A stretch of 64,000 nt of DNA from Leptolyngbyaceae cyanobacterium (GCA_965263355.1 CBDHHL010000014.1:1-64000); one strand, 5' to 3'; numbered from the stretch's first letter, positions 1-34,940 are shown. Program-made: numbers and translations. Notes: generated by a model not told the origin, from the letters alone.

Positions 1-372
1 GCACCTGACGATGTGACCATTTACCAGAGTGCGATCGTGTTTTTAATTAGCCCATATTCAACTAGCTCGGTTGCGGGCGCTACGATGGTTCCCCTGACTG
101 GCTATGTCACAATGCTATTAACAGCAACGGCCAACGCTAGAGAGTTTACTGGGACTGCGACATTATCACAGGCAGAAACGTCTAAGTTGCTGGCCGTTAC
201 TAATGAGCCATTGTCTGGGCTAAAAGAAACTGAAGTTGAAATGATAGCGATCGTTTACCAGGGGACAGTTTCACCAGTGCCAGGGACAGACCAGGGCGAG
301 ACGATGAAGACTGATACAATAACCCCGTTTATTGCCCCTGGGATGAGTACGACGTTACAGCAAGCGGTTTAA
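1..372 (+). CDS. hypothetical protein, 5'-truncated by window edge (Thr-rich, possibly structural)
   Basis: Frame is open from base 1 to the stop at 372; composition looks beta-strand rich. Confidence 0.4.
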   Translation, partial: APDDVTIYQSAIVFLISPYSTSSVAGATMVPLTGYVTMLLTATANAREFTGTATLSQAETSKLLAVTNEPLSGLKETEVEMIAIVYQGTVSPVPGTDQGETMKTDTITPFIAPGMSTTLQQAV

Positions 373-566
373 GCGTTAAAAACGCTTTCTAGACTATAAG
401 CAAAATCACGGATAGCTTCGTCGATATCGCTCGCGATCACTTCTCGGCTCAGCAATGTAACATCTAAGAATGAATTATCAAGCATCAGCGAAACAGTATA
501 TTTGCCATCTTCTCGCTTAACGGCGTAAATATTCAAATTTACGTTTACTTCTTTTGTTTTACTCAT
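369..566 (-). CDS. small hypothetical phage protein
   Basis: ATG-started 65-aa ORF in a run of co-oriented small genes. Confidence 0.5.
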   Translation of the reverse strand: MSKTKEVNVNLNIYAVKREDGKYTVSLMLDNSFLDVTLLSREVIASDIDEAIRDFAYSLESVFNA

Positions 567-678
567 TTAACGATTTGTCTTAATATCAGCACCAATGCGA
601 GCCATTTTTTCATCCAATTTTTGCAGGGTAATTCGCGCTTCTTCGGTCATCTTCGCCCTGCCATTGGCAATGTAACAT

Positions 679-906
679 TTAAGGTTGATTCATGAAACTC
701 AAGTAAAAATCAATCCCTTCTAATTCCACATAATAAATTTGCACTTTTCCTACTTTCTCTTTGCCTGGGATAATTCGTGGATCAATGTTGAGTTCCACCG
801 CATCTAAAATAGCGTCCTTCAAAACGTCATCAGTAACACCATCTGCCACTGATGCAAAGACCTTGATATGCCCGTAGATAGGGATTGTTAATAGTTTTTC
901 TTTCAT
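679..906 (-). CDS. small hypothetical phage protein
   Basis: ATG-started 75-aa ORF, co-oriented with neighbours. Confidence 0.5.
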   Translation of the reverse strand: MKEKLLTIPIYGHIKVFASVADGVTDDVLKDAILDAVELNIDPRIIPGKEKVGKVQIYYVELEGIDFYLSFMNQP

Positions 907-1025
907 TTTTTATCAAAAACTCGGCCTACTAAATTACTTTGACTTGCTGCTGCAACCGCAACTAATCAACTACGCTACAACCCTTGTTATTCAATACTTC
1001 TATTGAAAGCGTTTTTTGTTCTGGA

Positions 1026-1325
1026 CTACTTTTGGACTAGATCTGAAAGGGCTTTTACAACCTCTCTCAGCCTCCACAGTTTAACACCATGGTATGAACT
1101 TTTTTCGTATCTAGAAATCGTAGTGCTGGCCGAAGACTTTGTTAAGCCTAGCTTTAAGCCTAAGTCTTCTTGAGTCAAGCCATGGGTTTCTACTTTAAGT
1201 AGTTCAGGCAAGGTGTCAAGAACTTTTTCGGCTAGCTCCAGCGTAATCTCTATGTTTACGTCTGGCATCAATTCAATATTTATGTTGACGCTCAAAAGCG
1301 TAGCGTGTAAATTAGGAGATGTCAA
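1026..1325 (-). CDS. XRE-family helix-turn-helix protein
   Basis: GLTQEDLGLKLG...TISRYEKSSY...LWRLREVVKAL matches the XRE HTH pattern. Confidence 0.7.
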   Translation of the reverse strand: MTSPNLHATLLSVNINIELMPDVNIEITLELAEKVLDTLPELLKVETHGLTQEDLGLKLGLTKSSASTTISRYEKSSYHGVKLWRLREVVKALSDLVQK

Positions 1326-10664: not shown

Positions 10665-10676
10665 TATTCAGTGAAA

Positions 10677-11031: not shown

Positions 11032-11040
11032 AAAGAAAAA

Positions 11041-13289: not shown

Positions 13290-13335
13290 AATAATTCCTG
13301 TATAATTTCAGCTTGATTGGGCTTCATGCGTGTCA

Positions 13336-14370
13336 TCAACCCACCAACTCCAATAAACTTTTTTGCTCATATTTGCCCAACGTAAACTCGCCCCCGAATT
13401 CCCAAAAACCCTCGACAAACTGATCATCTCGACTATTGCCGTTAATCCCGTTGTTGCCCCCAGTCAAAACGCTAAGAGATGTTAACCGCCAATCACGGCC
13501 AAGCTTATCCATCCGTTCAATCGCGTCACACAATGGATCTGAAATATAATTAGTCATAACAATCCGTTCAATTCGAGGGTTAGCCAACAGCCTTTCTAGC
13601 GTGCTAACAATCAAATCAAACAACTCACTCCCTTGCGGATCACCATGACAGATATACGACGGTGTTAACGCCCCTGTCCCCCGTCGTCCTGATCTAGAAC
13701 CTTTCGGTACCCAATAAGGCGCATCATGCAAAGCGATCGCCTTGCCAGTAAAAGAAAGTTCAAAACTATCAATACAAGCATGGGCGTCATTAAAAAAGTG
13801 AAGCCTCCAATCAGGGCTAAACCAGGGCATCTTATAGCCCCAACCATCATTCAAGGATTCAAGTAACTCTGGCGACAATTGAGGCTCATTTTTCACAAAC
13901 CCAGACTTTTTCTTGAGACTAGCTACCTTATCGCGACTCTCTTTTACGTTTAATCGCCCCTTAGTATTCGCCCTGAGACAGCTCATAAACGTGAACTCGC
14001 GAATCAATAAAGACGCAGCAGCAAGTGTTACACAGTCACTTGCATCCTTGGTATCAACAATAGCTTTGAGGTTTTCGTAAACAAATTTTGGCCCCTTCGA
14101 GAGCACTTCTTTAGACCAATTATTAATAGTCTTCTCTACTTGCTGCCTTAGACTATCATCTTGCCAACATTGATAAATCACCTGGACAACAGGATCTATA
14201 TCAGCCAAGAAAGCCCGCTTAACAATTCCGTTGCCGAGCATCCAATGGCTGAAATGGCCAGCACAGGCAAAAGGTTCAATGCTGGCATCATAAACATAGC
14301 GCCTATCCCATACAGGATACTTAACGCGATCTTTTTTGCTACCAGGGGTGGGGAATAAACCTGTTTTCAT
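13336..14370 (-). CDS. Dam/D12-class DNA adenine methyltransferase-like protein (variant motifs)
   Basis: FPTPGSK, EPFACAG (motif I), ADID, HDAPY (DPPY-like motif IV), VMTN. Confidence 0.75.
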   Translation of the reverse strand: MKTGLFPTPGSKKDRVKYPVWDRRYVYDASIEPFACAGHFSHWMLGNGIVKRAFLADIDPVVQVIYQCWQDDSLRQQVEKTINNWSKEVLSKGPKFVYENLKAIVDTKDASDCVTLAAASLLIREFTFMSCLRANTKGRLNVKESRDKVASLKKKSGFVKNEPQLSPELLESLNDGWGYKMPWFSPDWRLHFFNDAHACIDSFELSFTGKAIALHDAPYWVPKGSRSGRRGTGALTPSYICHGDPQGSELFDLIVSTLERLLANPRIERIVMTNYISDPLCDAIERMDKLGRDWRLTSLSVLTGGNNGINGNSRDDQFVEGFWEFGGEFTLGKYEQKSLLELVG

Positions 14371-14373
14371 TTT

Positions 14374-15018
14374 TTACTTGACCGCCCCCACCCTAATAAG
14401 TTCTTTACCAATCCATTCAGTGTAGGCAGGGGGGATAGCTTGAGCTAGCTCTTTCTGAGTCATCCATGAGATGCGCATAGCTTTCTTAGCTTCAGCAACT
14501 CTAAAGTTATGCCCTGCAACAGTAATATATCCCCCTTCAGCTAATCGGCTCATTCCCCGATGGCTACCTGTACTGCCTTCAACTGGCACAATTGGCGGGC
14601 TCATCAACCAAGGGTTTATTTCGAAATAACGATCTCGAATCACTTGTAAGCCAAACATATTGCCACGCAAAACAATGGCATTGATTAAATGTCTTTTTGC
14701 ACCTGGCACATTTTCAATTACGTATGGCCTTCCAATAGCTCTTAATTTATCTCTAACCGAGTCAATAAGCTTAGGAGCATTTGATTTGCTGAGACTTTTT
14801 GTAACACTATAACCCTGGCATGGTGGGCTTGCGTGGATTACGTCAAACTCAAACGGGTTCAACGACTTTAATGCTTCTAAATAATCCATTTGATGGAATT
14901 CAAATGGATACCTTGGTTGTGGCTTATAATCAACTCCAACAACCTGAAAGCCTGCTCTGTGATAGCCCATTGCTGCGCCTCCAGCACAGCAAAAAAGATC
15001 TAAAAGTTTATAACTCAT
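14374..15018 (-). CDS. DNA (cytosine-5) methyltransferase, short phage type
   Basis: LDLFCCAGG, ASPPCQ, IENV, RDRYFE, AIPPAY. Confidence 0.9.
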   Translation of the reverse strand: MSYKLLDLFCCAGGAAMGYHRAGFQVVGVDYKPQPRYPFEFHQMDYLEALKSLNPFEFDVIHASPPCQGYSVTKSLSKSNAPKLIDSVRDKLRAIGRPYVIENVPGAKRHLINAIVLRGNMFGLQVIRDRYFEINPWLMSPPIVPVEGSTGSHRGMSRLAEGGYITVAGHNFRVAEAKKAMRISWMTQKELAQAIPPAYTEWIGKELIRVGAVK

Positions 15019-15151
15019 AGCAATAGTATTCAGTCTTGAAAAGTGTTCAATCTTGAAAGACCTCAATTATGCTTACCGGTTCGTGGCCTAATAAAAAAGC
15101 CAGTGTGATGAAAATTGCAGAGGCCAAATGACCCCTGCATCAAACTAACTA

Positions 15152-16330
15152 TTAAATAGCGGCTGGCTGAGGAGCCTTAGAATTCTCAGCAAGACGAGCC
15201 TTGATGCCCGCAACAAAAGAACTTTGAGAAGATTCAGGCAAACGTAAACGACAAATAACTCGCTTGTTTTTGTTCTTCATCTCTTCAATCCTATCAATAG
15301 AAAGGATCGCAGGGGCATCAATGCTTAATTGAGTAGTAGAGCCCAAAAGCACCCGTTTAATATAAGTATTGCCATTGATCGTCTTCTCAGAGCCATCAAC
15401 AATGGCATAAATTTCAACCCCATCACCAAACTTGCCCTGAGTCTTTTTGTAACCAACTATCTTATATTCAACCTCAGGGCTAAGCTCGGAAAGCTTCATG
15501 TAATTGCCTCCCGTCAGCTCAAACTCATGCCCATTGACACTAAGTTTTTTGCCTTCCTTGGAAACGGTTAATTCTTCAGCGAACCAACCATTTTCATCAA
15601 TAGAAAACTTTGCCCAATCTTCTTTATTGCCTGGTGCGTAAAAAAGCACTGGTTTTTCACCGATAGCACCTAAGATAGATCCGTAAAATTCACCTTCTTT
15701 GTCTCTCTTGGGAACCCATTTAATATGGGCAAACTCAATATCTGAACCGTCTTCTACATCCCCCCACTTGATTCTTTCCTCACCTCGCAACAAAAACTCA
15801 GTAAGTTTTTCAGGCGTATTTGCCATAGATAAACGGGCGCTCACAAGTTTGCGCCCATCTTCAGAGCGATGCTCATACTGTAAGCGAACAGGGCAAACCA
15901 ACGCATATCCAGATGGATCTAAAATCAGCGTATCATCGCCTAAATTAAGCGCGTACAAATCGCTAGGAAACGCAGTTTCATTAGGGATGACAAATCGCTG
16001 CTGTCCCCACCTGACGCAAATCCCGTCTTCATAGGCATAAATAGCAGGTGTAGCTAAATAACCGCCATTATCATTGTTTACAAAAACGCAAGTACAACCG
16101 TCCGGATTGTACTCGGTAAAACCAAGTTTCACAGCAAGCTGGTTAAACGCCTCACGAATATCTTCCGGCAAACTCTGATCCGGAATGTCAATCTTGTCTT
16201 CGCTAATCCCAGCACTCAATAATTCTGTCTCAAGGTCCATTAACTTTTGAGTAAGGTTAATGCTTGGAACAGCAGCAGTTGCAGTAGTTTGAGCTTGAGT
16301 GCTAGAGCCTTTCTTTTGAAATCGGGCCAT
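15152..16330 (-). CDS. hypothetical protein divergent from primase (possible ssDNA-binding/recombination protein)
   Basis: Long ORF; function inferred only from position and beta-rich composition. Confidence 0.6.
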   Translation of the reverse strand: MARFQKKGSSTQAQTTATAAVPSINLTQKLMDLETELLSAGISEDKIDIPDQSLPEDIREAFNQLAVKLGFTEYNPDGCTCVFVNNDNGGYLATPAIYAYEDGICVRWGQQRFVIPNETAFPSDLYALNLGDDTLILDPSGYALVCPVRLQYEHRSEDGRKLVSARLSMANTPEKLTEFLLRGEERIKWGDVEDGSDIEFAHIKWVPKRDKEGEFYGSILGAIGEKPVLFYAPGNKEDWAKFSIDENGWFAEELTVSKEGKKLSVNGHEFELTGGNYMKLSELSPEVEYKIVGYKKTQGKFGDGVEIYAIVDGSEKTINGNTYIKRVLLGSTTQLSIDAPAILSIDRIEEMKNKNKRVICRLRLPESSQSSFVAGIKARLAENSKAPQPAAI

Positions 16331-16427
16331 AATAATAAATTCCAATTTTTGAACATCGAGTTAGAGCAAACGTGGCATCGAACCGCTCTAAACGCTTATA
16401 AGTACAACCCTAAAAAATACAATCAAG

Positions 16428-16533: not shown

Positions 16534-18783
16534 ATGAGTGGATTAGGAGCTGATTTTGGATGGAAATCAATACGCAAGTTTATTCCCGAGCTGCCCGAGC
16601 AGCACTATCTAGAAGCCCATCACGCCAATCATTTAGCGGAAAGCGGTATAAGTCCCAGTGCTGCCCTAGTAGCTGGCATATTTAGCGCTGATGCTGCCTT
16701 AGCTAGAGCGCTCACAGGCCACGGTAGAGCCGGTCTGATATTCACTTATTTCACAATTGACGGCAAGGACGTATATCGATGGGGGGATGATAGCAGGCCA
16801 TTTTTTAGACTCAGGCCAGACAACCCGCCAACCCCAAAATGTAAATATCTATCCCCAAAAGGAGCGCCCCCACGGATTTATTTTCCGAGAGTGGCTAACA
16901 AAGTAGATTTTACTAAGCTTTCAGGACTCAACCTAGCCTTAGCAGAGGGCGAGAAAAAAAGCCTATTAGCAACACTCTGCAATATCCCATGTATAGGGAT
17001 TGGAGGAGTTAACAGTTACAAGACTGGCGATAAGGACGAATGGGGCAACCGTGCTTTAGGATGCCTGGTTGATGAGATTGATATTAGAGCCGCGCAAAAC
17101 TTAACCATAGTTTTTGATAGCGATATCACTCACAAATATCAAGTTGCTAGTGCCATCAAAGCATTAGCTGGAAATTTAATAGAGGCTTATCATCAGCTCG
17201 AAATAGACGAGACAGGCTCTGGCGAACGAGTGCCTACCCGAACACTAGTATTAGCTAAAAAATTAAAATATGCGCTGCTTCCAACACGATTGAAGCTTGG
17301 TAATGAAAAAAAGACCAAAAAACTAGGCTTAGATGACGCAATTATGCTATTGGGCGAATCGCCAGTAAAGGAATTGTTAAGACATGCATTGCCATTAGTA
17401 AAATGCAAGTGGGAAGATAAGTCATTAGATACTGAGTGCCTATTTGCGTCTGAACCACTGGGAGACGATGCCCACAAAGATACTCCTATTAATAAACAGC
17501 ATCATGTTAGGGGGTTAATCAGTTGGTTATCCTTACATGGCATCTATGCGAATATCCCTGATTATTCAAAACGTCAATATTACCCAGAGGGTATCTGGAA
17601 AGACGTAGGCGAGGAAGCCTGGAAATTACTTTCCGAACAAATAGCTGACACTCAGTGTTGGCTAAATAGGAAGCGTGCGATCGCGGCGCAAGAACTTAGA
17701 TTTGTAGAGAACAAGACCCGATTAAGTAAAGACCAATTTGACCAACCGCATCTACTAGGATTTATTAATGGAGTGCTGGAGCTTAATAAAAAAGAGCTTA
17801 TTCCACATTCTCCTCAAAATTATATTACTCAGACATTAGGATTTTCATATGACCCTGAAGCCCAATGTATCCAATGGCTAACCTGGCTAAATTGGATATT
17901 CGAAGATGATGAAAAGTGGCCAGAGATTATTCAAGCCCTTATTCGTTGGACGATCACGCCTAAAGAAAAAGGTCCCTATCCCATTCATATATGGCCTGTT
18001 CTAATTGGCCCAGCTGGCATCGGTAAAGGAACATTTTTAAGTGTGTTAACGCAGCTAGTAGGCGAAGGCAGTTATGCCGCCTGGAATTATCACAACGTGA
18101 ATGACGCTCGCGGCATGAACAGTATGTCCGGCAAACGAGCTTGTTTTGCAATGGACCTTAAAGGCGAATTGGGCAGTCAGGCAGTTGGAAATATCAACTC
18201 AATCTGTGTCAACGAGCCTCTAGACGTAGAAGCTAAATATAAAGACAAACGAACCGAAGAGTTCAAAACTGTCTTATGGGCAGCCATGAACCAGCCGATC
18301 AAGTCCAGGGCAGCTGACCAAGAAGGACTTAGTAGGCGAGTACTATATATCCCATTTAGCCGCAAACCCGCCGAGATCGATACTGAGCTGGCCAACAAAT
18401 TAAAAACTGAGCTACCAGGAATATTTAATTGGGCTTGGGCTATCTCCCTAGATGAAGCAGTGGAAACACTAAAAACCCACCTCAAGTCTGAGGAGAACAT
18501 AGCATTACAGCAACGTCACTTGGCAGAGTCAAATACTGTCTACGAATGGATGGAACATCTAGAACTATCCGTTGCTCAAACTCAAATAATTAGTGTCTGG
18601 TACAACCGTTATAAAGAATGGGTACTTAACACAGGCTGCAAACCATTAAAAATGAGAAATTGGAAAAAATACATCCTTGCCGCCGGGGCCGAAACTCAGA
18701 GGAAGACAGGAGAAGGCATCCCGCTAACACTACCTCCCCTAAAAGACGTTGACATTAGAAAAATGCTAGGACTATTCAAGTGA
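16534..18783 (+). CDS. DUF3854 (TOPRIM-like) primase fused to P4/D5-type SF3 helicase with C-terminal winged helix
   Basis: KYLSPKG, AEGEKK, GIGGV, IVFDSD, GLDD; D5_N-like GFINGVL..PHSPQNYIT; Walker A GPAGIGKGT; RRVLYIPF. Confidence 0.9.
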   Translation: MSGLGADFGWKSIRKFIPELPEQHYLEAHHANHLAESGISPSAALVAGIFSADAALARALTGHGRAGLIFTYFTIDGKDVYRWGDDSRPFFRLRPDNPPTPKCKYLSPKGAPPRIYFPRVANKVDFTKLSGLNLALAEGEKKSLLATLCNIPCIGIGGVNSYKTGDKDEWGNRALGCLVDEIDIRAAQNLTIVFDSDITHKYQVASAIKALAGNLIEAYHQLEIDETGSGERVPTRTLVLAKKLKYALLPTRLKLGNEKKTKKLGLDDAIMLLGESPVKELLRHALPLVKCKWEDKSLDTECLFASEPLGDDAHKDTPINKQHHVRGLISWLSLHGIYANIPDYSKRQYYPEGIWKDVGEEAWKLLSEQIADTQCWLNRKRAIAAQELRFVENKTRLSKDQFDQPHLLGFINGVLELNKKELIPHSPQNYITQTLGFSYDPEAQCIQWLTWLNWIFEDDEKWPEIIQALIRWTITPKEKGPYPIHIWPVLIGPAGIGKGTFLSVLTQLVGEGSYAAWNYHNVNDARGMNSMSGKRACFAMDLKGELGSQAVGNINSICVNEPLDVEAKYKDKRTEEFKTVLWAAMNQPIKSRAADQEGLSRRVLYIPFSRKPAEIDTELANKLKTELPGIFNWAWAISLDEAVETLKTHLKSEENIALQQRHLAESNTVYEWMEHLELSVAQTQIISVWYNRYKEWVLNTGCKPLKMRNWKKYILAAGAETQRKTGEGIPLTLPPLKDVDIRKMLGLFK

Positions 18784-18800: not shown

Positions 18801-20225
18801 CTACGCTACAGCGCAGGCTTCCCTTGACGAGAAGTTCTGCTTCGTTATTAACGCCTCATTAGAAACGCAAGTTAACGCCGTTTTAAGTGAGGCGCTATCC
18901 ATCCCCACTGTTAGCAAACCGATTCGCTTGATCAGTTTTCCAGAATTAACGTCTCTGGGAAGTGATTCACCGCAGCTATCGCAATCGTGCCATCGATCTT
19001 TTAGAGACTTTGGAACGCGGTTTAAGCAGTTCCAGCAGTGTTGCGATGTTCCACGCGGATCAATCTCGATTACTCGTTTACCAAGCTTGAAAGCAACCCA
19101 TTTTAAGACTTTGACAAACTGACCCAATGCAGCATCAGTCATCGATTTATTCAGCCCAGACTTAGCAGCTTGACCGTTAGGGATGAATTTCCCCTCTTCA
19201 GTTTTAGGTTTATTTCGTCTTATTAGATTCTTAAGCGATAAATCTTCGACGAATATCACTTCGCAATCGGAGAACAGTTTGTAAGCTGTTTTGTATTGCC
19301 AGTCAAGACGAGATCTAGCGATGTGAGTCTGGAGCTTAGCGATACGTTTTGCAAGAACCTTACGCGCCATAGAACCGTGAGGCTTCGATGCTTTTCTAGC
19401 TTGAAGTTTAGCGATCCGCTTCTCAAGTTTTCGATACCACCATGGGTTTTCTACTTGGATTCCGTCAGAACAAGACGCGAAAAATTCAACGCCTAGATCA
19501 ACACCTTTAGAGTTTATTTCAGTGGGATGAATCTCTACATCCACTACAGGCACTGATTTATCTTCGAGACTGAATGAAATAAAATAATCGTCAGTATCGC
19601 GCTTAATCGTAGCTGTCTTAACTGTGAAACCTTCAGGGATTTCTCTATGTTCGATGAAATCGAGAATACCGATTTTAGGTAACTCAACTTGACCTGAACC
19701 GATCAATTTAATTCCTTGAGGAAAACATATTGAACTGTAGTAAGGCTTACCTTTGAACTTAGGTTTACCTGATCTTTTACCGTTTTTATCGCCAAATACA
19801 AACCGATCAAACGCTTTTTTAAGGCGTTCAATACAATTTTGTAAGACTTGAGACGGCATTTCTTTGTATTCAGGAAATAGTTTTTTAGTATTTTTTAGAT
19901 CGTCTTTTTGAACGGTATACCAATCAACATATCCTTGTTGAATCAAAGAATACTCAGAACCTTTGTTTTTACCCTTAGATAAAATTTTCGATTCGGGAAT
20001 ATCACGATAAATCTCGTCAACAGGAACTATGAAGCTTGCTAGTGGACAAGCGTTAACAGGTGTTCGGGTGGCTTCATACCAGTTAAGGCGCTGCCCAAGC
20101 CTAAAATTCCATTGTCTACGACACAGTTCGATCCATTCGTCTATGGTTTTTTGTTGCCAAGACTCAAGACGTAATCTGTATTTTCTAGCAATTCTCATAA
20201 TTCTGTTGACTCGACCCATCGACAT
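18801..20225 (-). CDS. tnpB: RNA-guided endonuclease TnpB
   Basis: GVDLG, VEDL, CWNC/CDSC zinc ribbon, PRDVNS. Confidence 0.95.
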   Translation of the reverse strand: MSMGRVNRIMRIARKYRLRLESWQQKTIDEWIELCRRQWNFRLGQRLNWYEATRTPVNACPLASFIVPVDEIYRDIPESKILSKGKNKGSEYSLIQQGYVDWYTVQKDDLKNTKKLFPEYKEMPSQVLQNCIERLKKAFDRFVFGDKNGKRSGKPKFKGKPYYSSICFPQGIKLIGSGQVELPKIGILDFIEHREIPEGFTVKTATIKRDTDDYFISFSLEDKSVPVVDVEIHPTEINSKGVDLGVEFFASCSDGIQVENPWWYRKLEKRIAKLQARKASKPHGSMARKVLAKRIAKLQTHIARSRLDWQYKTAYKLFSDCEVIFVEDLSLKNLIRRNKPKTEEGKFIPNGQAAKSGLNKSMTDAALGQFVKVLKWVAFKLGKRVIEIDPRGTSQHCWNCLNRVPKSLKDRWHDCDSCGESLPRDVNSGKLIKRIGLLTVGMDSASLKTALTCVSNEALITKQNFSSREACAVA

Positions 20226-20261
20226 CTACTATGGTATACACGGTGATTAAAAAAGTCAAGC

Positions 20262-20708
20262 ATGAAACGTAAATATGTAGCAAGGTCTAGGGGTGTAAGT
20301 AATTTACACGGTCATTTGATAATTACGACAAAATATCGGTATAAGATCCTTACGGAACCTATGCTCAAGAGGTTGATAGAAATCCTCAAAGACTTATGTG
20401 AAAAATGGCAGTGTGAATTTATCGAGGCAAACGGTGAGCCAGATCACGTTCATTTGTTGTTCCGATACTTTCCGCAAATTGAGTTGTCAAAATTTATTGG
20501 AAACGTCAAAAGCGTTAGCAGCCGTAGATTACGGTCTGAGTTTCCAGAAATCGTTGAGCCCCGATATTGGAAAAAAGTTCTATGGAATGAAAGTTACGCT
20601 ATCGATGCTGTAACAAATGTTAAACTTGAAACTCTGATTAAATATGTTCAGACACAACCAACCGAAACGCTTCGCGAGGTTACAGAACGTTTCGGTTACG
20701 AGTTCTAA
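20262..20708 (+). CDS. tnpA: IS200/IS605 Y1 (HUH) transposase
   Basis: HLIITTKYR, DHVH, LWNESY, YVQTQ. Confidence 0.95.
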   Translation: MKRKYVARSRGVSNLHGHLIITTKYRYKILTEPMLKRLIEILKDLCEKWQCEFIEANGEPDHVHLLFRYFPQIELSKFIGNVKSVSSRRLRSEFPEIVEPRYWKKVLWNESYAIDAVTNVKLETLIKYVQTQPTETLREVTERFGYEF

Positions 20709-21678: not shown

Positions 21679-23490
21679 ATGATTTGTATGGGTAGCGAGT
21701 TGGTCGTTAGTCCTGTGAGAGCGACTAGTTCGCTTTCTTCTTTGCGTGTTGCTGATGAGAAAAAGGCTAAGACTGCCTTTGAGCGTTACTTTTCCGATCT
21801 AAAGCCTCAACAAGCTGTGATGGTTAGAGAGGTACTTGAATTTATTATTGACGGTCATCAATATATGGGACGTATTGATGGGCGTGCAGGAGTAGGCAAA
21901 AGCTATTGTGTGGGCCGTATCGTCCAAGCTTTGATCGATATGAGCGTTGTGCAAAACATAGTTGTTTGCGCCCCTACCCATCAGGCAGTAGCAGTAGCAG
22001 GGGGCTATCTAGGAGGTTTGAAGATACCGAAGGGTACGCTTCACCGGATGATGGGGCTTCGAGCGAAGCGGGTTAATTTTTTGCTTGCAGACCAACGTAA
22101 GCTTGATCTTTTAGTTTCCCAGGCTGATGACCTTAGTGAAGAAGAGGAAAAAGAGCTTAGAGACTTGCGTAGTAAGCAAATGGCTGCAAGTCAGCGGATG
22201 AAGCGGTTTGAACCTAGCGGCAAGATTCCAACTGAAATAGTTAACGCCGAGTTACTTATTGTGAGTGAATGCGGCATGGTTAGCCAACAGCTATGGGATT
22301 TGTTAGGCCGATTGCGTGACTTGCCAGGGATGCAAAAAAGAGATCCTAAGATTGGCCCCTTACAAATCTTATTTGAGGGTGACTTGGCACAGTTAGCCCC
22401 AGTTGGTGAGATAGAAAGCTTGACGGGCAAGGTTAAATCATTCTCCCCGCTTACAGAGCCTGTCAGATACGACGGGAAAATCCTTGAATATGCTCATATG
22501 GTCTTAAATTCTGACGACTATATGATGGCTCATTATCGCATCCCAGAAGATGATACGTTTTTGCGGATGTCTGAGCCAGAAGTATTGGATTCTGTTGGAG
22601 ATTTGCTTAAAGATGGTACTGATATTAGGTTCCTGGCATCCAGCAATAAACGAGTTGATGAGCTAAATGCCAAGGTTCGGTTTGCATTAAATGGAGAGGA
22701 GGGCTTGAAACGGTTCTACCCAGGGGATCGAATGCTAACCCGTACAGCAATTGAGCGTGGGAATTCTCCCCATTATTTAATTGCTAGTGGTGGCATGAAC
22801 TCGGTCATCCAGATAGGCACTAGTACATTGCTCAATTTGAAAGACCAGATTAAGCCTGGTGATTGGGCTTGCTTAGGGTGGAAGTTTGGTGAGCCTTTAT
22901 CTTTTGAACAAGCCATCAAAGGGACTGATAAAGAGGTACCTGTGGTTGAAAACTTGTTCCAATACACGTCAGTCCTAGGCACAACATATCATCGGCAATT
23001 GTTTACATATTCTATGGCTGGTGAAAGTAACGCAGCTGTAGGCGTTGTAATGCTGCTAGATCCTATCCAAAAAACTCAATACGATGAAGAGGTTGCCTTA
23101 CTTTATAAACTGGCTCAATCATCGCATTCAAGTAGTAATAAAACCACTAGAGGCAGTAACGGCAAATACTCACAGCAAGTATTTGACCGTCTAAGGATGA
23201 AAAATTGGTTCAAGTGGGTTGATGGGTCTGACATTTCGGAATTTCAGTTCAAAGAGATCCGAAAGCAACTATGGAAAGATTATTTTGCCATTTATGATTT
23301 TGTAGACGACATCACCCTGGCTTTCGCTAGTACAGTTCATAAAATCCAGGGCGGATCAGCTGAGTGCATTGTGATTGACGGTAAGACGATACTGCAAAAC
23401 CGTCGTTATAAAGATGACACTTGGGATTCTAAAAAAGTTTTGTATACAGCAGCTACCAGGGCAAGAGAGCAACTGGTTTTCATGCTGTAG
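21679..23490 (+). CDS. Dda/RecD-like superfamily 1B helicase
   Basis: GRAGVGKS, APTHQA, GDLAQLAPV, STVHKIQG, YTAATRA; Walker B reads IVSE. Confidence 0.88.
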   Translation: MICMGSELVVSPVRATSSLSSLRVADEKKAKTAFERYFSDLKPQQAVMVREVLEFIIDGHQYMGRIDGRAGVGKSYCVGRIVQALIDMSVVQNIVVCAPTHQAVAVAGGYLGGLKIPKGTLHRMMGLRAKRVNFLLADQRKLDLLVSQADDLSEEEEKELRDLRSKQMAASQRMKRFEPSGKIPTEIVNAELLIVSECGMVSQQLWDLLGRLRDLPGMQKRDPKIGPLQILFEGDLAQLAPVGEIESLTGKVKSFSPLTEPVRYDGKILEYAHMVLNSDDYMMAHYRIPEDDTFLRMSEPEVLDSVGDLLKDGTDIRFLASSNKRVDELNAKVRFALNGEEGLKRFYPGDRMLTRTAIERGNSPHYLIASGGMNSVIQIGTSTLLNLKDQIKPGDWACLGWKFGEPLSFEQAIKGTDKEVPVVENLFQYTSVLGTTYHRQLFTYSMAGESNAAVGVVMLLDPIQKTQYDEEVALLYKLAQSSHSSSNKTTRGSNGKYSQQVFDRLRMKNWFKWVDGSDISEFQFKEIRKQLWKDYFAIYDFVDDITLAFASTVHKIQGGSAECIVIDGKTILQNRRYKDDTWDSKKVLYTAATRAREQLVFML

Positions 23491-24398: not shown

Positions 24399-24803
24399 AT
24401 GTCACTAAGAAAAGGTCTTTACGATGTTTACGATCTTCATGAACAAAAAGATTACGAGCATGAAGGCTATTGCATTTTATTCCATCCCGATAATAGAGTT
24501 TTGCTGCTAAGTGTCCATGATGAGATTAAAGCTAGTTTTACTTTGCCAGTCAAAAGCAAAGATATTTCTTACTTGATTGAAAGCTTTAGTGAGCATTGCC
24601 CGCCCGATTCTAAAGGTGATTCCTATTTCTGTGTAGCTGAAGCTATTGCAGATATAGCAGGAAATAAGACTCAAAAGTTTGGCAATTGCGAATGTTGTGG
24701 GACTCGGCTGTTTAGGTATGGCGGATATTACGGCAGTGGGATGTGTGGCGTTTGTCATCAAGGTGATGCGGAGCTTTTAGAGGAAGTGGGGGCAACTTGG
24801 TAA
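24399..24803 (+). CDS. hypothetical protein with C-terminal CxxC zinc ribbon
   Basis: CECCG...CGVC; AGGA upstream. Confidence 0.6.
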   Translation: MSLRKGLYDVYDLHEQKDYEHEGYCILFHPDNRVLLLSVHDEIKASFTLPVKSKDISYLIESFSEHCPPDSKGDSYFCVAEAIADIAGNKTQKFGNCECCGTRLFRYGGYYGSGMCGVCHQGDAELLEEVGATW

Positions 24804-25198
24804 TGAAAATTTCAAAAAAAATACTTCAGTCTTCAATACTTAAAATCCCTAACCTGCGGGGGGTGAATGTAACCATTGGCGCTGATGCTGGGGTCGGTGG
24901 TGCTCCACCAATTGCGATATGGATTTATTGTGGAATAAATGGTTATTCGGGAAGCCCTGTCAAGGTCAGATTAAAGCTAGCAACGGGGGAGATCTTCTAT
25001 TACCAGCATTTGTACAGGAAAGATGATTCACCGCATACTCAAGAATCAATGATGAATTATGCAGCTGCTTGTCTTTTTTGTGGTGGATTAGAACCTGAAG
25101 ATATTTTGAACCTTGCTGAACAAGCTGGTCACGAAGTGCGTTTGCCCATAGATGAGATCATCTTTCCAGACTATCAAAAGCCATGCCTCACCAATTAG
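24803..25198 (+). CDS. hypothetical phage protein
   Basis: Coupled ORF in the replication operon. Confidence 0.55.
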   Translation: MKISKKILQSSILKIPNLRGVNVTIGADAGVGGAPPIAIWIYCGINGYSGSPVKVRLKLATGEIFYYQHLYRKDDSPHTQESMMNYAAACLFCGGLEPEDILNLAEQAGHEVRLPIDEIIFPDYQKPCLTN

Positions 25199-25542
25199 AA
25201 CTATCGTTAACTCGTCGTTCTAAAACCAAATGCACTGCCCCATCGGATGCCATCATCCCAGGCTTAGACGCTAGCTTATGCCGCTGTAATTATTGCCTAA
25301 CTCGTTCTGATGGCATTTGGTGGGTAGATGTCGACCAACGGCTTGACTGCCTCAATAAGAAAAAGCATAAAATCCCTTACTTAATTGAGGTATATCGTCG
25401 TCAAACCGTTAGTGTGGGCCACGACGACGATACAAAAGAAACAGAAGCTCAAAATGCGAAACGTAAACACGCACAATGGGCCGGTCAAAAATTCAAACAA
25501 ACTAATAAACCATGTCAACAACAACAATTACTAGACCAATAA
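25183..25542 (+). CDS. hypothetical basic protein
   Basis: Overlapping ORF in the replication operon. Confidence 0.5.
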   Translation: MPHQLELSLTRRSKTKCTAPSDAIIPGLDASLCRCNYCLTRSDGIWWVDVDQRLDCLNKKKHKIPYLIEVYRRQTVSVGHDDDTKETEAQNAKRKHAQWAGQKFKQTNKPCQQQQLLDQ

Positions 25543-27050
25543 CAGAACCAAAGTTCAGCTCTTATCCATATCCTAAGGAGGGGGCCACAAGTGCCGAATG
25601 GCGAGCTTGGCTAGAAGGAATGGTGGGGGATCTTTGGTATGACATCGCAGTTGAATTAACCCCCCTATTAAATAATGTGCAAGTTGAGCGATTCCCAGTT
25701 GAATTTATCCCGACATTTGACCAGGTGGGCGGCAGTGGTTGGGCTCGTCTTGATGGGGGTAGCTGGCAATGCATTTCCCCTGATGACCTGCCTGCAACCA
25801 TGGTTCTCGATGTTGAATCCATTGAATTGCAAGCATTCACGGCAAACGCTGATATAGATGCTTGGTTGCCCTGCCTATGCATTTGCTATGGGGCCGACGG
25901 TTACTGGTATGCGTGGCAAGAGCAAAATCCAATGTATCGCTGGACGGAAACTAAGCAGCGTACTATTCCGTTCCCAACTGGTTGCATCATAATCACTCAG
26001 AACGGCGCTGCCCATGACTCCCAATTTCTTAGTAGCTCTTATGCCGAGTATGGACCAGAGCGTTGTCTATTTATAGATGTGATGGCCCTGGCAATGCTTG
26101 TCAGAGGAGTTCACAAAGAACAGCGATCGCAGTATGAGAAGCACAAGGTTGCGATCGCTAATGGCAAGCCTGCGCCTGATTGGATAACCCAGGCATCCGA
26201 TATGGACTTGGCCAGTTTAGCTAGTGACGTGCTGGGAATTGAGATTTTGAAAATAGTTGGGGGGGAAGGGCCACAGACATTGTTTGAGTATTGCGCTCAA
26301 GATGTTTGGGTAACCCTTCGATTGTTTCAAGAACTATGGCCACTGGTTTCTAACATCTATTGCCCCAGTCCAGTGATTTTGTATGGCATGGCGGCAACGA
26401 CTGGGCTTAGATATCCGGTTGGCGATTGGCAAGAACTTGTTTCGTATATAGAAACTGAATATGAAAAAGCCAAAAAAATCAAGCCTAGCAAACGAGATTC
26501 TAATGATATTGCTCTAGTTAATTGGGGCAAATCACATTTGCGTACATTTCGCGATGGATATAGCGTTAACGGCATGACCAATATGGGCTTTAACCCTGCT
26601 CACGATGTATCAGGGATGCCAAAAAGCACTATTTGGAGTCATCACTGGATGATTCGGCAATTTTTAATTACTGGAGTTAGTGATCAGCCGACCACTAGTT
26701 ATATGCTGTTTGAGGCTAGGGTTCCGATGCCGACTATTCCAGGGAATGCATTAGCTAAGACATTAGCCAGCCAGCCGAACATTAAAACGCATTTTGCTAA
26801 GCCCCCTGAGCCAGTGAAAGCCAACAAAAAAGCTAAGGCTGATTGGCTGCAATTAAGGCCGTTAACCGATGCTATGCACGTCATGATCTGCCTGATTGAC
26901 TGCTTTTGTGAAGAGTACGAGATCGACGGATTTCTTGCAATCCCAGGACTAGAAACATTGTGGTACGCCGTCGACTCTGCTCAGGAAAAAGAGTTTCAAG
27001 AATGCATCGCTAAAGCTCAAAGTTTAATTTACAAATTAATGAGGGATTGA
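25512..27050 (+). CDS. DNA polymerase gamma-like (family A) protein: 3'-5' exonuclease motifs intact, polymerase domain degenerate
   Basis: VLDVE (ExoI), QNGAAHD (ExoII), FIDVMAL, YCAQDVW (ExoIII), CPSPVILYGM; C-terminal DAMHVMI...IDG without HDE. Confidence 0.8.
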   Translation: MSTTTITRPITEPKFSSYPYPKEGATSAEWRAWLEGMVGDLWYDIAVELTPLLNNVQVERFPVEFIPTFDQVGGSGWARLDGGSWQCISPDDLPATMVLDVESIELQAFTANADIDAWLPCLCICYGADGYWYAWQEQNPMYRWTETKQRTIPFPTGCIIITQNGAAHDSQFLSSSYAEYGPERCLFIDVMALAMLVRGVHKEQRSQYEKHKVAIANGKPAPDWITQASDMDLASLASDVLGIEILKIVGGEGPQTLFEYCAQDVWVTLRLFQELWPLVSNIYCPSPVILYGMAATTGLRYPVGDWQELVSYIETEYEKAKKIKPSKRDSNDIALVNWGKSHLRTFRDGYSVNGMTNMGFNPAHDVSGMPKSTIWSHHWMIRQFLITGVSDQPTTSYMLFEARVPMPTIPGNALAKTLASQPNIKTHFAKPPEPVKANKKAKADWLQLRPLTDAMHVMICLIDCFCEEYEIDGFLAIPGLETLWYAVDSAQEKEFQECIAKAQSLIYKLMRD

Positions 27051-27158
27051 TCGTGAAAACAAAAATAGGTCAGGCCATGTATTACGACGATGGCAAATAT
27101 TGGATTGATGATTATGGTCGAAAACGTCAAGCTACACCAGAAGAAATAGAGGAAACTT

Positions 27159-27437
27159 TTGCTCAAAATGAAATTCAATCTACACGGCAATATTGGTGAT
27201 TACGTCAATATTCTCGGTCACTACTACCTTGTATTTTCTCGCGCTGATGGGTTTATCTGGGCCGTATTTCCTGGTTATAGACCGTCAGCTTTGATGCAGG
27301 GGAACCCGTTAAGTAATAGTTGCAAAGCTTCTGAGTGCTCCTTTCCTGTCATCCCTGTCGGTTGGAGCGATGGCGGCCCTGCATTAATCCCAAGTACTTG
27401 GAAGCTGGATCAAAATAGTCCAAAAATATTTTTTTAA
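27159..27437 (+). CDS. hypothetical protein
   Basis: ORF coupled to the downstream exonuclease; start uncertain. Confidence 0.45.
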   Translation: MLKMKFNLHGNIGDYVNILGHYYLVFSRADGFIWAVFPGYRPSALMQGNPLSNSCKASECSFPVIPVGWSDGGPALIPSTWKLDQNSPKIFF

Positions 27438-28288
27438 TGATGAATAACCTAATTGTTGTTGATACGTCTGTGATCGCCTTCCAAATGTCGGCACAGATTG
27501 ACAAGGCAGGCCTAACCGAAACTAACGCTAAAGTTTACGCCTACATGGCGGCAGAATGGGTTAATTCACTAGGCTGGATTCCTGCATTGCAATCAACTGC
27601 TAAATGCGTTTGGGCAATTGACTCTAAGCCCTACTGGCGTAATCAGTTATTCCCCAATTACAAAGCAGACCGCAAACCTAAGCCCCCATCATTTCATACT
27701 GCGATGGAGGGCATGTTAAGCAGTAGTGCTTCTTTAATTGACATAAAATCACAAGAAGCCGACGACGTAGCCGCTGCTATTGTTCGGCTATGGCTAAATA
27801 GCAGCTCAGGATTAATCGATCAGATTTATCTGGCTACCGTTGATAGTGACTGGCTTGGGTTAGTCCAAGACCCTGATATTTTTTGGCTAAATACTCGCAA
27901 CCACCCTCCACGCGTTCGAAGCCGAGAAGAGATATTTAATTGGTTATGCAGCAAATGGAACCAGCAATCTAAGAAACGTCAGAAATGGTGGGCATTGCCT
28001 AGCTATCAATCATTTAGATGTGATGATGTTTGGCGATGGAAAATAGCAGTCGGCGATAAAGCCGATAACTTAAGCGATGGTTCAGCAAAATACTTAATTG
28101 ATTTACTGCGACCTCCTAAACAATTTGATATCCTAGAATCAAAGGAATCTGTAAATACTATTTACAGAGGAGTAAATTTAGCAAGTAAGCCTGATTTGAG
28201 CCTTGCTCATGAATGTAAGCAGGGCATGCTGTCACTAGGGGCACTTCCCCCTATCGAAATAATTAGTCTGAAAGTTTTAGTTTCATAG
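27437..28288 (+). CDS. 5'-3' flap exonuclease (T5 D15 / T4 RNase H / PolI N-terminal family)
   Basis: VVDTS, WRNQLFPNYKADR, QEADD, TVDSD, GDKADN. Confidence 0.9.
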   Translation: MMNNLIVVDTSVIAFQMSAQIDKAGLTETNAKVYAYMAAEWVNSLGWIPALQSTAKCVWAIDSKPYWRNQLFPNYKADRKPKPPSFHTAMEGMLSSSASLIDIKSQEADDVAAAIVRLWLNSSSGLIDQIYLATVDSDWLGLVQDPDIFWLNTRNHPPRVRSREEIFNWLCSKWNQQSKKRQKWWALPSYQSFRCDDVWRWKIAVGDKADNLSDGSAKYLIDLLRPPKQFDILESKESVNTIYRGVNLASKPDLSLAHECKQGMLSLGALPPIEIISLKVLVS

Positions 28289-33548: not shown

Positions 33549-34940
33549 ATGAAGCTCCCCCACCTTAAAGAGGATGGGGGTGTCTTATGCTAACTTGAGG
33601 TTATCCCTAACCCACAGGTCACATAAGCAAGCCCAGCTTCCGGGCTTCCGTCTAGAACTTTTGCTAGAGCGGAACTCACGATCCTTTCGGTCAGTGAGCT
33701 TAAGAATTCCTCTAGCTGCGATGTTTTGACTCCCATTGAGGTCGCAGTTATACCGCTTGCCAGAAGAAAATTTTGCTAAAGCGTAGTTTTTAGAGTCACG
33801 CTTCACGACTCCAGAGCCATCATAAGCAAGCTTCGAAGTGTAGGCGGCAACGATATCTATGACTTTGCCACCAAGTTCCTTCCACTTCATTTCGGTATAA
33901 TCGCGAATCTTGCTTTTGAGCCATCCGTGGAACCGCTGACGGAGGTTAGAGCGCTTTTTGCCGCCCTTAGGTTTCCATCCTTTTAAGTTCTCAAAGACAA
34001 TAGCTTCAGAGTTGTGGTCTTTGGCTATGTTAACTATTCGCCTAGAAACGATGTGGCCAATCTGGGTGTTGATGTTCCGACATTTACGATAGGTGTTAGA
34101 GCAAAATCCTTTATGGAGTTTGCCGCCTTTCCCCATCGTCTTGTTGGCTCTCATTGATACAGACTTTAGGCGTTTGTCACGACGGTCTATGTCTCTTCCA
34201 GGGTGAATAAATTCACGATAGATTACAGTACCGCAATGGGTTACGACTGAAACTGTAGCTGTAGTATTTATTCCAAGGTCTACAGCAACCACATTTTTGT
34301 CAGGGTTCCGCTTTACTGGCTTGCAATGAAACGGAACCGATAAATGACATGACTTAGCATTGAGAATGAGTGACGGTGACAGCATTTTGTTACCTGCTAT
34401 CTCATGGCAATCCCTAAGCCCTGTGATTTGAACCATCGTCCAAACCCAATCAGACCCGGTGAACACCTTGATCTCAACCTTGTCTAAGCCATGCAGCTTG
34501 TAGCACTGCCCTTTGTACAGCGCTGGATAGCACCCAGCATCAGGGTTTAGCAATGGGGGTTTAGCATCTCGACGTTTGCGAGATTGCCCGCACTGCCAGT
34601 CACGATACCGGGTCATGTAGCTACTAACCTGGCCAATCGCAAAAGTGATAGCAGCCCTACGGTAGTAGCTGGGGAACTTATGAAACACCCGGTTGATTTG
34701 CGGGTATTTCACGTCTGGGCGGTTGCTGGTTGCGTGCATTAGACGCTCAACCGCTGGTGTTCTCTCATCTGCCGTGAGCGGTGCTAGCTCTGGCCAGTGC
34801 GTAAAGACAATACCCACTAAATACCGACACACACGACGATAGATCTTAATCGTTTCACCAAACAGCAGGCGCTGTTCAGTGGTTGGATTAAGCGTCCATT
34901 TGTCGGTACGGATGATTTTTGTGGGTTTTTTCATCTTCAT
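33549..34940 (-). mobile_element. IS200/IS605-family tnpB-only element (right end intact)
   Basis: Right end CCCCCATCCTCTTTAAGGTGGGGGAGCTTCAT ends at about 33549; no tnpA; left end not resolved. Confidence 0.7.
33585..34940 (-). CDS. tnpB: RNA-guided endonuclease TnpB
   Basis: AVDLG, VFENL, AYTSK, NCDLNGSQNIA. Confidence 0.93.
   Translation of the reverse strand: MKMKKPTKIIRTDKWTLNPTTEQRLLFGETIKIYRRVCRYLVGIVFTHWPELAPLTADERTPAVERLMHATSNRPDVKYPQINRVFHKFPSYYRRAAITFAIGQVSSYMTRYRDWQCGQSRKRRDAKPPLLNPDAGCYPALYKGQCYKLHGLDKVEIKVFTGSDWVWTMVQITGLRDCHEIAGNKMLSPSLILNAKSCHLSVPFHCKPVKRNPDKNVVAVDLGINTTATVSVVTHCGTVIYREFIHPGRDIDRRDKRLKSVSMRANKTMGKGGKLHKGFCSNTYRKCRNINTQIGHIVSRRIVNIAKDHNSEAIVFENLKGWKPKGGKKRSNLRQRFHGWLKSKIRDYTEMKWKELGGKVIDIVAAYTSKLAYDGSGVVKRDSKNYALAKFSSGKRYNCDLNGSQNIAARGILKLTDRKDREFRSSKSSRRKPGSWACLCDLWVRDNLKLA

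Follow-up and report, generated by a model that had tools for sequence, protein, structure and literature searches.

A 64,000-nucleotide (nt) stretch of DNA from a Leptolyngbyaceae cyanobacterium (GCA_965263355.1 CBDHHL010000014.1:1-64000; the whole stretch is called the window below) contains, at 25512..27050 on the + strand, stop codon included, a gene for a 512-amino acid (aa) protein. The gene is a homologue of Pol-gamma-type family A DNA polymerase genes. Clean excision has removed the thumb and fingers subdomains from its product, and the palm has lost both the motif A Asp and the motif C His-Asp-Glu. This exo-plus-palm architecture is that of a conserved family of ~470-525 aa under purifying selection and not that of a broken gene. 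Neither the replication module in which the gene lies nor the whole prophage of a relative encodes a recognizable DNA polymerase. The reading favored here, with a probability of roughly 0.6, is that the protein is a stand-alone 3′-5′ exonuclease, braced by a vestigial palm and working beside host polymerases.

Exonuclease and palm of a Pol gamma homologue

The open reading frame (ORF) begins with ATG, and an in-frame stop codon at 25509-25511 lies directly 5′ of it, so the N terminus is well defined. An earlier note, made from the sequence alone, had described the ORF as free of stops, and the translation is indeed uninterrupted over all 512 aa, with zero internal stops. All named database copies of the protein are labelled "hypothetical protein," and the NCBIfam and PADLOC libraries gave zero matches. 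In Pfam, the protein matched PF18136, the mitochondrial polymerase exonuclease domain, at 39.9 bits compared to a gathering score of 26.7 (E = 3.5e-10); PF00476, the family A polymerase domain, gave no match to it at E ≤ 0.1. Among the PHROGs, phrog_22619 ("DNA polymerase") matched the exonuclease part only (E = 7.2e-8). A phmmer search against all PDB chains returned 17 sequences at E ≤ 1, the first 13 of which were human or mouse POLG (E ~2e-9) and the 14th yeast Mip1 (E = 1.3e-3). The strong piece of the match paired residues 252-329 with POLG residues 320-398 (YCAQDVW...CPxPV..GM), and two weak pieces covered the Exo II region and residues 440-487, the latter opposite POLG 1027-1074, a segment that ends in motif C. 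Comparison by hhalign with 19 full-length phage and cyanobacterial Pol-gamma-like relatives gave a probability of 100 and E = 9e-73.

The predicted fold agrees with the sequence matches. An AlphaFold2 model made from an alignment of 15 family members had a mean predicted local distance difference test score (pLDDT) of 91.2 and a predicted TM-score (pTM) of 0.91. When this model was searched against the PDB with Foldseek, the first 34 rows were all Pol gamma (best E = 1.9e-17, TM(query) up to 0.74). VIA-align superposed 454 of the 512 residues on human POLG (9ggf_A) at Z 33.6 and a root mean square deviation of 3.4 Å, with residues 11..512 of the model spanning POLG 125..1168, and the second-best fold family, the Pol I types (phage G20c, Taq, and Bst), reached only Z 15-17. 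This means that nearly all of the protein has a counterpart in POLG and that the exonuclease domain and the palm sit relative to each other as they usually do. Even the N-terminal region (residues 1-70, 25512..25721, +), modeled with a long helix at residues 27-54, superposes on POLG from about residue 125. The resemblance to Pol gamma, which the earlier note had proposed to check against POLG and Mip1, is far above chance and is strong both in sequence (PF18136, phmmer, hhalign) and in the predicted fold (Z 33.6).

The earlier note had read a series of short motifs as following the order of those in POLG. All of the quoted strings occur in the translation and in that order: GWAR at residues 76-79, MVLDVE at 97-102, WYAW at 132-135, QNGAAHD at 163-169, FIDVMAL..VRG at 187-199, YCAQDVWVT at 260-268, CPSPVILYGM at 284-293, YMLFEARVP at 397-405, DAMHVMI at 453-459, and IDGFLAIPGLETLWY at 471-485. 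The first of these belong to a 3′-5′ exonuclease domain of the DEDDy type, residues ~71-323 (25722..26480, +), which is covered by PF18136. A long-form profile of 834 positions, made from 48 Pol-gamma-like relatives of 720-1120 aa with three reduced intermediates included, matched it over profile positions 39-336 at E = 7e-69. Its catalytic set is complete (D100, E102, D189, Y260, and D264), and the statement that all acidic Exo residues are there (D100, E102, D189, and D264) was borne out.

The same residues recur across the family, as counted in a 15-row alignment of 13 full-length rows, one N-truncated row, and one C-terminal fragment. In Exo I, D100-V-E102 (25809..25817, +), the Asp is found in 13/13 and the Glu in 11/13 of the rows that cover the site. 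The equivalent of the POLG "GHNVSFD" segment, N164-G-A-A-H168-D169 (26001..26018, +), has its Asn and Asp in 14/14 rows and its His in 13/14. The Exo II Asp, D189 of FIDVM (26076..26078, +), which the HMMER alignment places opposite POLG "FLDTM," is present in 14/14 rows. In Exo III, Y260-C-A-Q-D264 (26289..26303, +), aligned to POLG YCAQD, the Tyr is kept in 13/14 rows and the Asp in 14/14. The exonuclease domain is the best-conserved segment of the family, with a mean pairwise identity of 37%. PF01612 matched weakly around Exo III (E = 0.0049), below the cut-off.

Beyond the exonuclease domain, only ~190 residues follow in the AlphaFold2 model. They form a vestigial palm, residues 324-512 (26481..27047, +), in which palm strands and helices are retained and the thumb and fingers are absent, as seen by hhalign, by the long-form profile, and in the model. 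The earlier note's "collapsed palm" is an apt description: palm elements stay, and what lay between them has been cut out (AlphaFold2 model, VIA-align, and hhalign). Apart from the exonuclease match, the profile aligned only at positions 712-769 (E = 1.8e-7), and positions 337-711 (~375 positions) have no counterpart in the protein. This block includes motif B, which the earlier note had reported as missing, and hhalign likewise set the thumb/linker, fingers, and motif B blocks of the full-length relatives opposite gaps. Among the parts that remain, hhalign recovered a degenerate "GTxSRR...W" segment at about residues 354-376, and both hhalign and the model show a helix at residues 379-387 followed by the strand YMLFEAR at 397-403. 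The segment "ALAKTLASQPNIKT..P" aligns with "LAxxxxxRTxxLGVKxPxS" of the relatives, and a long helix at residues 439-468 aligns with their "NWxIQSxGVDxLH." The C-terminal part of the palm is a hairpin at residues 473-488 and then a C-terminal helix, again in both the model and the hhalign alignment.

The two metal-binding motifs of the palm are degenerate. The motif A remnant is the strand YMLFEAR followed by V and P (26700..26726, +), in which R403-V404-P405 stand in the column of the relatives' D-F-D, so that R403 occupies the place of the catalytic Asp; this register is our reading of the model and the alignments, and hhalign itself places the motif a few residues earlier with low confidence. 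The column is acidic in 2/15 family rows. The motif C remnant is the β hairpin at residues 473-488 (26928..26975, +; strands 473-477 and 482-488), where HMMER aligned L480-E481-T482 with the H-D-E of POLG ("sihdevry"). The catalytic Asp of POLG motif C is therefore E481 here: the Asp is lost, and a carboxylate stays. The claim that both catalytic Asps are gone thus stands for motif A and, as far as the Asp itself is concerned, for motif C, with the qualification that the motif C position is still acidic.

Two acidic residues were considered as survivors of the polymerase site and rejected. D391 (FLITGVSD) was not accepted as the true motif A Asp, as the helix at residues 379-387 matches the "IRxxF"-type helix that precedes motif A and D391 is not conserved across the wider family. 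E481 was not accepted as a surviving catalytic carboxylate, since its column is D or E in only 7/15 family rows. The protein fails every defining catalytic feature of an active family A polymerase and is not to be filed as a polymerase.

Conservation of the short form and its longer relatives

Relatives of the same short form were found at several distances. A word-index search at similar length gave three relatives, one of 512 aa at 96% identity and two of 514 and 517 aa at 50%. An exhaustive search of 1.84 billion representatives gave 75 proteins at E ≤ 1e-3, among which 10 (P0002, P0004-P0006, P0008-P0012, and P0014; 469-525 aa) aligned over their full length. In all, 13 full-length short forms, including the window protein, align end to end, and the exo-plus-palm architecture is common to about 12 clusters, made at 50% identity, of proteins 469-525 aa long. 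Whether they are 96%, ~50%, or down to ~30% identical to the window protein, these relatives are all 469-525 aa long and have the same layout. In a maximum-likelihood tree of exonuclease domains (68 rows; left out were P0015, in which an insert interrupts the domain, and nine hits of <450 aa), all 13 short forms and two proteins of 536-550 aa formed one clade with a Shimodaira-Hasegawa-like approximate likelihood ratio test (SH-aLRT) support of 99. The earlier note had suggested a search for homologs of ~500 aa with conserved Exo and lost Pol motifs; most of the 469-525 aa relatives of this clade are such proteins, and none of them is a full-length polymerase. The two additional clade members, P0027 (536 aa) and P0036 (550 aa), have the exonuclease domain and ~90-105 linker/thumb profile positions, with the palm unmatched; they may represent a further reduced form, or each may be the first half of a gene that is split or truncated.

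At short range, the conservation is closer still. The 90% cluster of one short form (P0001) has 16 members, and 13 of the 15 listed are 512-513 aa long, on contigs of up to 165 kb. One protein (P0090), encoded on a ~102-kb contig, is identical to that of the window. Among 12 cluster members of 512 aa, the catalytic positions are invariant, and 8 variable positions fall in residues 324-512 compared to 24 in residues 1-323. Variants were also taken from three public sequencing runs of one study (X1-X3) that contain a ~96% relative. The 36 listed variant positions in the ORF affect 35 codons, of which 27 are changed synonymously and 8 non-synonymously. With 330 synonymous and 1206 non-synonymous sites in the ORF, this corresponds to a pN/pS of ~0.08; the earlier note had suggested a test of dN/dS. 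In the palm part, the count is 7 synonymous codons to 1 non-synonymous.

Longer relatives came from the exhaustive search of representatives; the word-index search among longer proteins had found none, which is weak evidence. Viral contig scans, made with the single protein and with the family alignment, returned no relative, and tblastn against 50,697 phage records matched only the Microcystis phage Mic1. The nearest sequence kin outside the short family are the Pol-gamma-like polymerases of cyanophages, reported for A-HIS1/A-HIS2, S-TIM5, S-CBWM1, and Mic1 (PMC7156551, PMC10201439), and their metagenomic relatives (730-1100 aa); the earlier note had likewise named A-HIS1/2 as phages with full polymerases of this type. 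The long cyanophage-type forms are 32-36% identical to the window protein over the exonuclease domain and have in common with the short family a C-terminal palm segment, "..W..Q....D...(F/I)..EY(E/D)(I/L)D..L." Motifs A (GADFDSQE), B (AKxxNFxxxYGGG), and C (HD) are all retained in the full-length forms, whereas the short family is without all three, and PF00476 does match full-length relatives (E = 1.6e-14 for a 932-aa protein at locus L013 and 1e-8 for Mic1_85).

Three metagenomic proteins of 726-769 aa (P0021, P0030, and P0032) have intact exonuclease residues, have lost motifs A, B, and C, and are unmatched by PF00476. They differ from the short family in that the thumb/linker is still there (profile positions up to ~510-583). 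The free tree sets these three apart from the short clade. However, an approximately unbiased (AU) test did not reject a single clade of all 18 rows with a dead polymerase (p-AU 0.61), the constrained tree being 5.3 log-likelihood units higher. An independent origin of the polymerase-dead forms is therefore not claimed. One origin with stepwise reduction from the long form through loss of the fingers and then of the thumb, or two separate losses, are both possible.

Replication module and search for a polymerase

The window is a siphophage-type genome with many IS200/IS605 elements; a tape-measure gene (51977-56449), a tail fibre gene, and the endolysin genes of a lysis module (9059-10664) are present. 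A relative of the locus (L002) lies on a 121,982-bp contig (G001:C1) of a cyanobacterial metagenome-assembled genome (MAG) that carries a whole prophage. On this contig, host genes extend to ~18.9 kb and are followed by the gene for a large serine recombinase (18876-20267), a ~100-kb prophage, and host genes again at ~118-120 kb. The prophage has the same replication, tail, and lysis genes as the window.

A polymerase gene, intact or split, was looked for in both, as the earlier note had advised, and none was found. The long-form profile was scanned against all six frames of the window (1027 stop-to-stop segments of ≥30 aa) and matched only the ORF described here, the next-best segment being at E = 0.14; Pfam found no DNA polymerase of any family among 68 window ORFs. 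The same scan of the 121,982-bp contig matched only the 514-aa orthologue (next best E = 2.5), and Pfam found no DNA polymerase among all 108 contig ORFs of ≥110 aa. PF00476 was not found above the cut-off in the whole MAG, which is probably incomplete, since the host Pol I was not recovered either. A split or complemented polymerase is unlikely because the scans of the window and of the contig matched the focal gene only. The POLG match is there, the close relatives are all short, and no complementary half turned up; these are the three points on which the earlier note had let its proposal stand or fall.

The gene belongs to a module with the same gene order in the window and in the MAG prophage: a 397-aa protein on the - strand, a primase-helicase, a helicase, three small ORFs, the exonuclease gene, a flap endonuclease, and a 117-aa ORF. 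Gene for gene, the identities are 48% for the primase-helicase, 37% for the helicase, 62%, 38%, and 54% for the three small ORFs, 50% for the exonuclease gene, and 54% for the flap endonuclease. Another family member, 31% identical, is encoded on L011, a metagenome contig of 7.4 kb, which has a 413-aa protein, the helicase, two ORFs, and a 508-aa exonuclease gene in the same order. In Mic1, the Pol gamma gene likewise comes after a helicase and small ORFs, and at L013 a DUF5906 protein is encoded upstream of the 932-aa Pol-gamma-like gene. Because of this gene order in Mic1 and at L013, the short gene is the positional heir of a polymerase gene.

The primase-helicase (16534..18783, +) is of the P4 family, with DUF3854/Toprim-like, D5_N, and SF3 helicase domains in Pfam, a TIGR01613 match of 121 bits versus a cut-off of 108.7, and a PHROG match to DNA primase. 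The helicase (21679..23490, +) is of the SF1B Dda/RecD-like type (phrog_325, Dda-like, E = 7.6e-49; AAA_19 and UvrD_C_2) and is syntenic in the MAG prophage and at L011. Downstream of the exonuclease gene, the earlier note had placed a flap exonuclease gene. It lies at 27437..28288 (+), is a flap endonuclease or 5′-3′ exonuclease by PF02739 (E = 2.6e-13) and phrog_107, and has a 54% identical orthologue that follows the exonuclease gene in the MAG prophage.

The conserved 397-aa protein (15152..16345, -) belongs to no known family and has orthologues in the MAG prophage and at L011, with 30-39% identity across the three loci. Its model is of low confidence (pLDDT 60) and rich in β barrels. Foldseek gave weak matches only, to LEF-3, HIN, Teb1, POT1, and RPA70 (best E = 1.4e-3), and the model is consistent with the protein possibly being a phage single-stranded DNA (ssDNA)-binding protein (SSB) of the tandem oligonucleotide-binding (OB) type. 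It was also considered as a hidden polymerase and rejected: it had no PDB sequence match, its atlas scores were below 0.9, and the pLDDT 60 model gave weak matches to OB-fold ssDNA binders, none at E ≤ 0.001.

Two of the small ORFs upstream of the exonuclease gene can be described further. The first, of 134 aa (24399-24803, +), is 62% identical in the relative prophage and has no family match; judged by its sequence, the C-terminal CxCC...CxxC cluster is a probable zinc ribbon. The last, a 119-aa ORF of unknown family (25183..25542, +; 54% identity in the relative prophage), extends 31 nt into the exonuclease gene. Pfam, PHROG, NCBIfam, and PADLOC were empty for it except for a far-sub-threshold PF03496 match (E = 0.084, 12.6 bits versus a cut-off of 23.4). 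A contig form seen in runs X2 and X3 lacks 191 nt (25298-25490) within this ORF, and some relatives may carry a shortened version.

The gap between the exonuclease and flap endonuclease genes is also variable. Over 27051-27440, the summed contig depth was 5-10x lower in all three runs, with loose ends at 27035-27041 and 27441, where the ~96% relative differs in sequence, and one contig form skips 27053-27169. With its small ORFs (27047-27199 and 27159-27437), this segment resembles an insert that varies among strains.

Six TnpB/OrfB_IS605-like ORFs were detected by Pfam in the 64 kb. Three are unpaired (2504-3808, 33585-34940, and 63324-63998, all -), and three are paired with an IS200-type Y1 transposase (TnpA), at 6180-7394(-)/7423-7824(+), 18801-20225(-)/20262-20708(+), and 59397-60767(-)/60842-61261(+). 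The second pair (18801-20708) sits between the primase-helicase and the Dda-like helicase, genes that are ~0.8 kb apart in the relative prophage.

The arrangement of the genome as a whole differs from that of the prophage. Within 9059-16345 of the window, the lysis module (M15 peptidase, lysozyme, and lipase) directly adjoins the methylase/primase side, whereas in the relative prophage the two sides are at opposite ends, at ~110-114 kb and ~21-25 kb of G001:C1. Because this junction differs, the gene order of the window is a circular permutation of that of the prophage, and the window resembles an excised or free form; the attachment site would lie at ~12.0-13.3 kb in the window. A Wzy_C (O-antigen ligase/polymerase-like) membrane protein is encoded at 44023-45216 (+; PF04932, E = 2.1e-13) and could be a lysogenic-conversion gene. 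In the relative prophage, an 846-aa ORF after the small terminase (L008:1000-3537; G001:C1 81000-83537) has a weak homing-endonuclease/LAGLIDADG match at residues ~278-346. It could be a large terminase with an intein, such as the text of PMC7156551 reports for Mic1.

Proposed function, alternatives, and known systems

Without the deoxynucleoside triphosphate-binding fingers and motif B, the duplex-gripping thumb, and the metal-binding acid pair, the 512-aa protein is expected to be unable to polymerize. It would instead act as a stand-alone 3′-5′ DNA exonuclease on DNA 3′ ends. The palm remnant, which in the predicted model takes the same position relative to the exonuclease domain as in POLG, could serve as a structural brace and docking surface for that domain. 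DNA synthesis would be carried out by host polymerases recruited by the phage P4-type primase-helicase. The exonuclease might then trim 3′ ends, whether mismatched primer ends, 3′ flaps, or recombination intermediates, and such trimming would complement the neighboring 5′ flap endonuclease. A more far-reaching history can be imagined, in which a temperate cyanophage lineage converted a Pol-gamma-type replicase into a nuclease subunit by losing first the fingers and catalytic acids, as in the 726-769 aa proteins, and then the thumb, as in the ~500 aa family, and in which the exo-plus-palm protein plugs into a hijacked host replisome as the phage's own module for editing or 3′-end processing and a substitute for an epsilon-type proofreader. 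This history is tentative, and we consider it rather doubtful. If true, it would make the protein the first family A polymerase fossil kept for its exonuclease, one in which nature has reduced the Pol gamma fold to a minimal "exo + palm" core.

Several points weigh against a stand-alone exonuclease braced by its palm. First, its basis is the catalytic residues, the predicted model, and the gene context, from which the function is inferred. Second, exonuclease chemistry is not retained in every family member. A sublineage (P0010 and P0105; 525-530 aa, contig of up to 125 kb) has DVSS, SESD, and DMFQD in the Exo I, His-Asp, and Tyr motifs, respectively; these proteins are still of full length but have substitutions of the Glu in Exo I, the His, and the catalytic Tyr, and Exo I of P0008 and its cluster reads D-V-D and not D-x-E. 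Third, over long distances the mean pairwise identity of the palm part is 23% compared to 37% for the exonuclease domain; as the palm evolves faster at long range, its role may be less constrained or more partner-specific than that of a brace. Fourth, the pN/pS value comes from a sample of the variants, with 97 further positions in the 3.1-kb stretch beyond the listed ones. Finally, the lack of a polymerase was established for 64 kb of the phage's own genome, ~38 kb being unseen, and rests partly on the prophage of a 50%-identical relative, and the Pfam negatives leave room for a polymerase of unknown kind among the many unannotated ORFs.

The second of these points bears most directly on an alternative in which the protein is mainly a non-catalytic replisome adaptor in the polymerase's old place, with exonuclease activity secondary or dispensable. 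Its partners would be the phage helicase(s), SSB, or flap endonuclease, or a docked host polymerase or clamp. Full-length proteins without the Exo I Glu, His168, and Tyr260 are what such a pseudo-enzyme would allow, and so is a palm that is dead in every member and yet under purifying selection at short range (7:1 codons; 8 versus 24 variable positions), in a gene that keeps the polymerase's position in the module. Dead polymerase homologues are also kept as subunits elsewhere, as in the C-terminal module of Pol epsilon (PMC2669801) and in ImuB (PMC12926913). However, the exonuclease catalytic residues are retained in 11 of the 13 rows that cover the whole site, across ~30% identity, and the best conservation of the family lies in the exonuclease domain, which is hard to explain if the chemistry is irrelevant. 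An adaptor is the main rival to the stand-alone exonuclease and is judged unlikely.

An intact DEDDy site would equally suit an active 3′-5′ exonuclease with a job outside replication fidelity, such as the breakdown of host DNA for nucleotides or an attack on defence-related or competing DNA. The breakdown of host DNA is a task of stand-alone DEDD exonucleases such as T4 DexA, and no phage polymerase that would need proofreading was found here. Three observations argue against such a job. The gene is embedded in a replication module, where its synteny with the helicase and flap endonuclease genes is conserved. The relative is a prophage, integrated and presumably temperate, whose edge carries a serine recombinase, and wholesale destruction of host DNA is less expected of such a phage. 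PADLOC was unmatched, though that library holds defence and not counter-defence proteins. The chances of this alternative appear low.

Lower still are those of a split polymerase, in which the thumb and fingers are encoded elsewhere, by a second gene or past an intron, and an active enzyme is assembled. There are precedents in the Mic1 Pol gamma, reported as two ORFs separated by a 298-bp intron (PMC7156551), and in the T7-like S-SBP1 phages, reported with separate exo and pol genes (PMC10201439), and the unseen ~38 kb could hold a second gene. However, one continuous ORF here runs from the exonuclease domain to the motif C region and so includes the two ends of the polymerase, which points to an internal loss and not to a split; the palm's own catalytic residues are substituted; and the searches of the window, the 122-kb contig, and the MAG gave no other profile match (next E = 0.14 and 2.5) and no PF00476 match above the cut-off, respectively. 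Slightly less probable again is a reduced palm with new catalysis, for example, a non-canonical nucleotidyl transfer by E481 and other acids. E481 does align with the POLG motif C Asp, and D391, D453, and D472 are invariant in the closest subfamily, but E481, D391, and D472 are not conserved family-wide, D453 corresponds to a conserved Asp outside motifs A and C (in the "..GVD.." helix of the full-length forms), and the fingers and motif B that would bind a nucleotide are absent. Least credible is recent decay of a dying polymerase gene in a defective prophage: the six TnpB-like ORFs, three with an IS200-type TnpA, suggest an insertion-tolerant genome, but the ORF has neither stops nor frameshifts, the same architecture recurs from 96% to ~30% identity in at least 13 representatives of one clade, synonymous change is in strong excess, and the model is confident and compact.

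Pol gamma serves mitochondria as their replicase. Outside the eukaryotes, as given in the text of PMC10201439, its only known relatives are cyanophage polymerases of unproven function; there, Pol gamma makes up cluster 2 of family A, with cyanophages included "whose functionality remains to be proven." What is new here is a conserved branch of Pol gamma in which polymerization has been given up and the exonuclease retained, in phages apparently without any polymerase. If the exonuclease is active, the protein would be a natural, compact 512-aa editing module of the Pol gamma type that could be studied without partitioning between the pol and exo sites. It would also raise the idea of a phage that supplies fidelity or end processing to a borrowed host replisome and, together with the intermediate forms, might offer a stepwise record of the passage from a replicative polymerase to a nuclease or scaffold.

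Literature searches, supplements aside, turned up no description of a Pol-gamma-like protein that is an exonuclease only and has a vestigial palm. Several known systems come near it. POLG and Mip1 belong to the same PF18136 family, have the same Exo I-III residues and YCAQD, and superpose over the exonuclease and palm folds, but they are ~1200 aa long compared to 512 aa. The spacer/accessory-interacting region, thumb, fingers, and motif B are absent from the short protein, and in it the motif A Asp is replaced by Arg and the motif C HDE by LET. The S-SBP1 and Mic1 systems resemble the present one in that a separate cyanophage ORF encodes the exonuclease domain of a family A enzyme. There, an active pol gene is next door, whereas here none was found and the ORF itself bears the dead palm. 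Stand-alone DEDDy exonucleases of the PolA-exo superfamily include the WRN exonuclease and RNase D, and DnaQ/epsilon is a trans-acting proofreader. All of these are, like the window protein, DEDD-type 3′-5′ exonucleases without a polymerase domain in cis, but they have no palm remnant and lie outside the Pol gamma lineage. The Pol epsilon C-terminal module and ImuB, both inactivated polymerase homologues that serve as structural subunits, resemble it in retaining the polymerase fold after the loss of catalytic residues. They come from families B and Y, respectively, and in the Pol epsilon module the exonuclease is dead too, whereas in the short Pol gamma family the exonuclease is the part that has been preserved.

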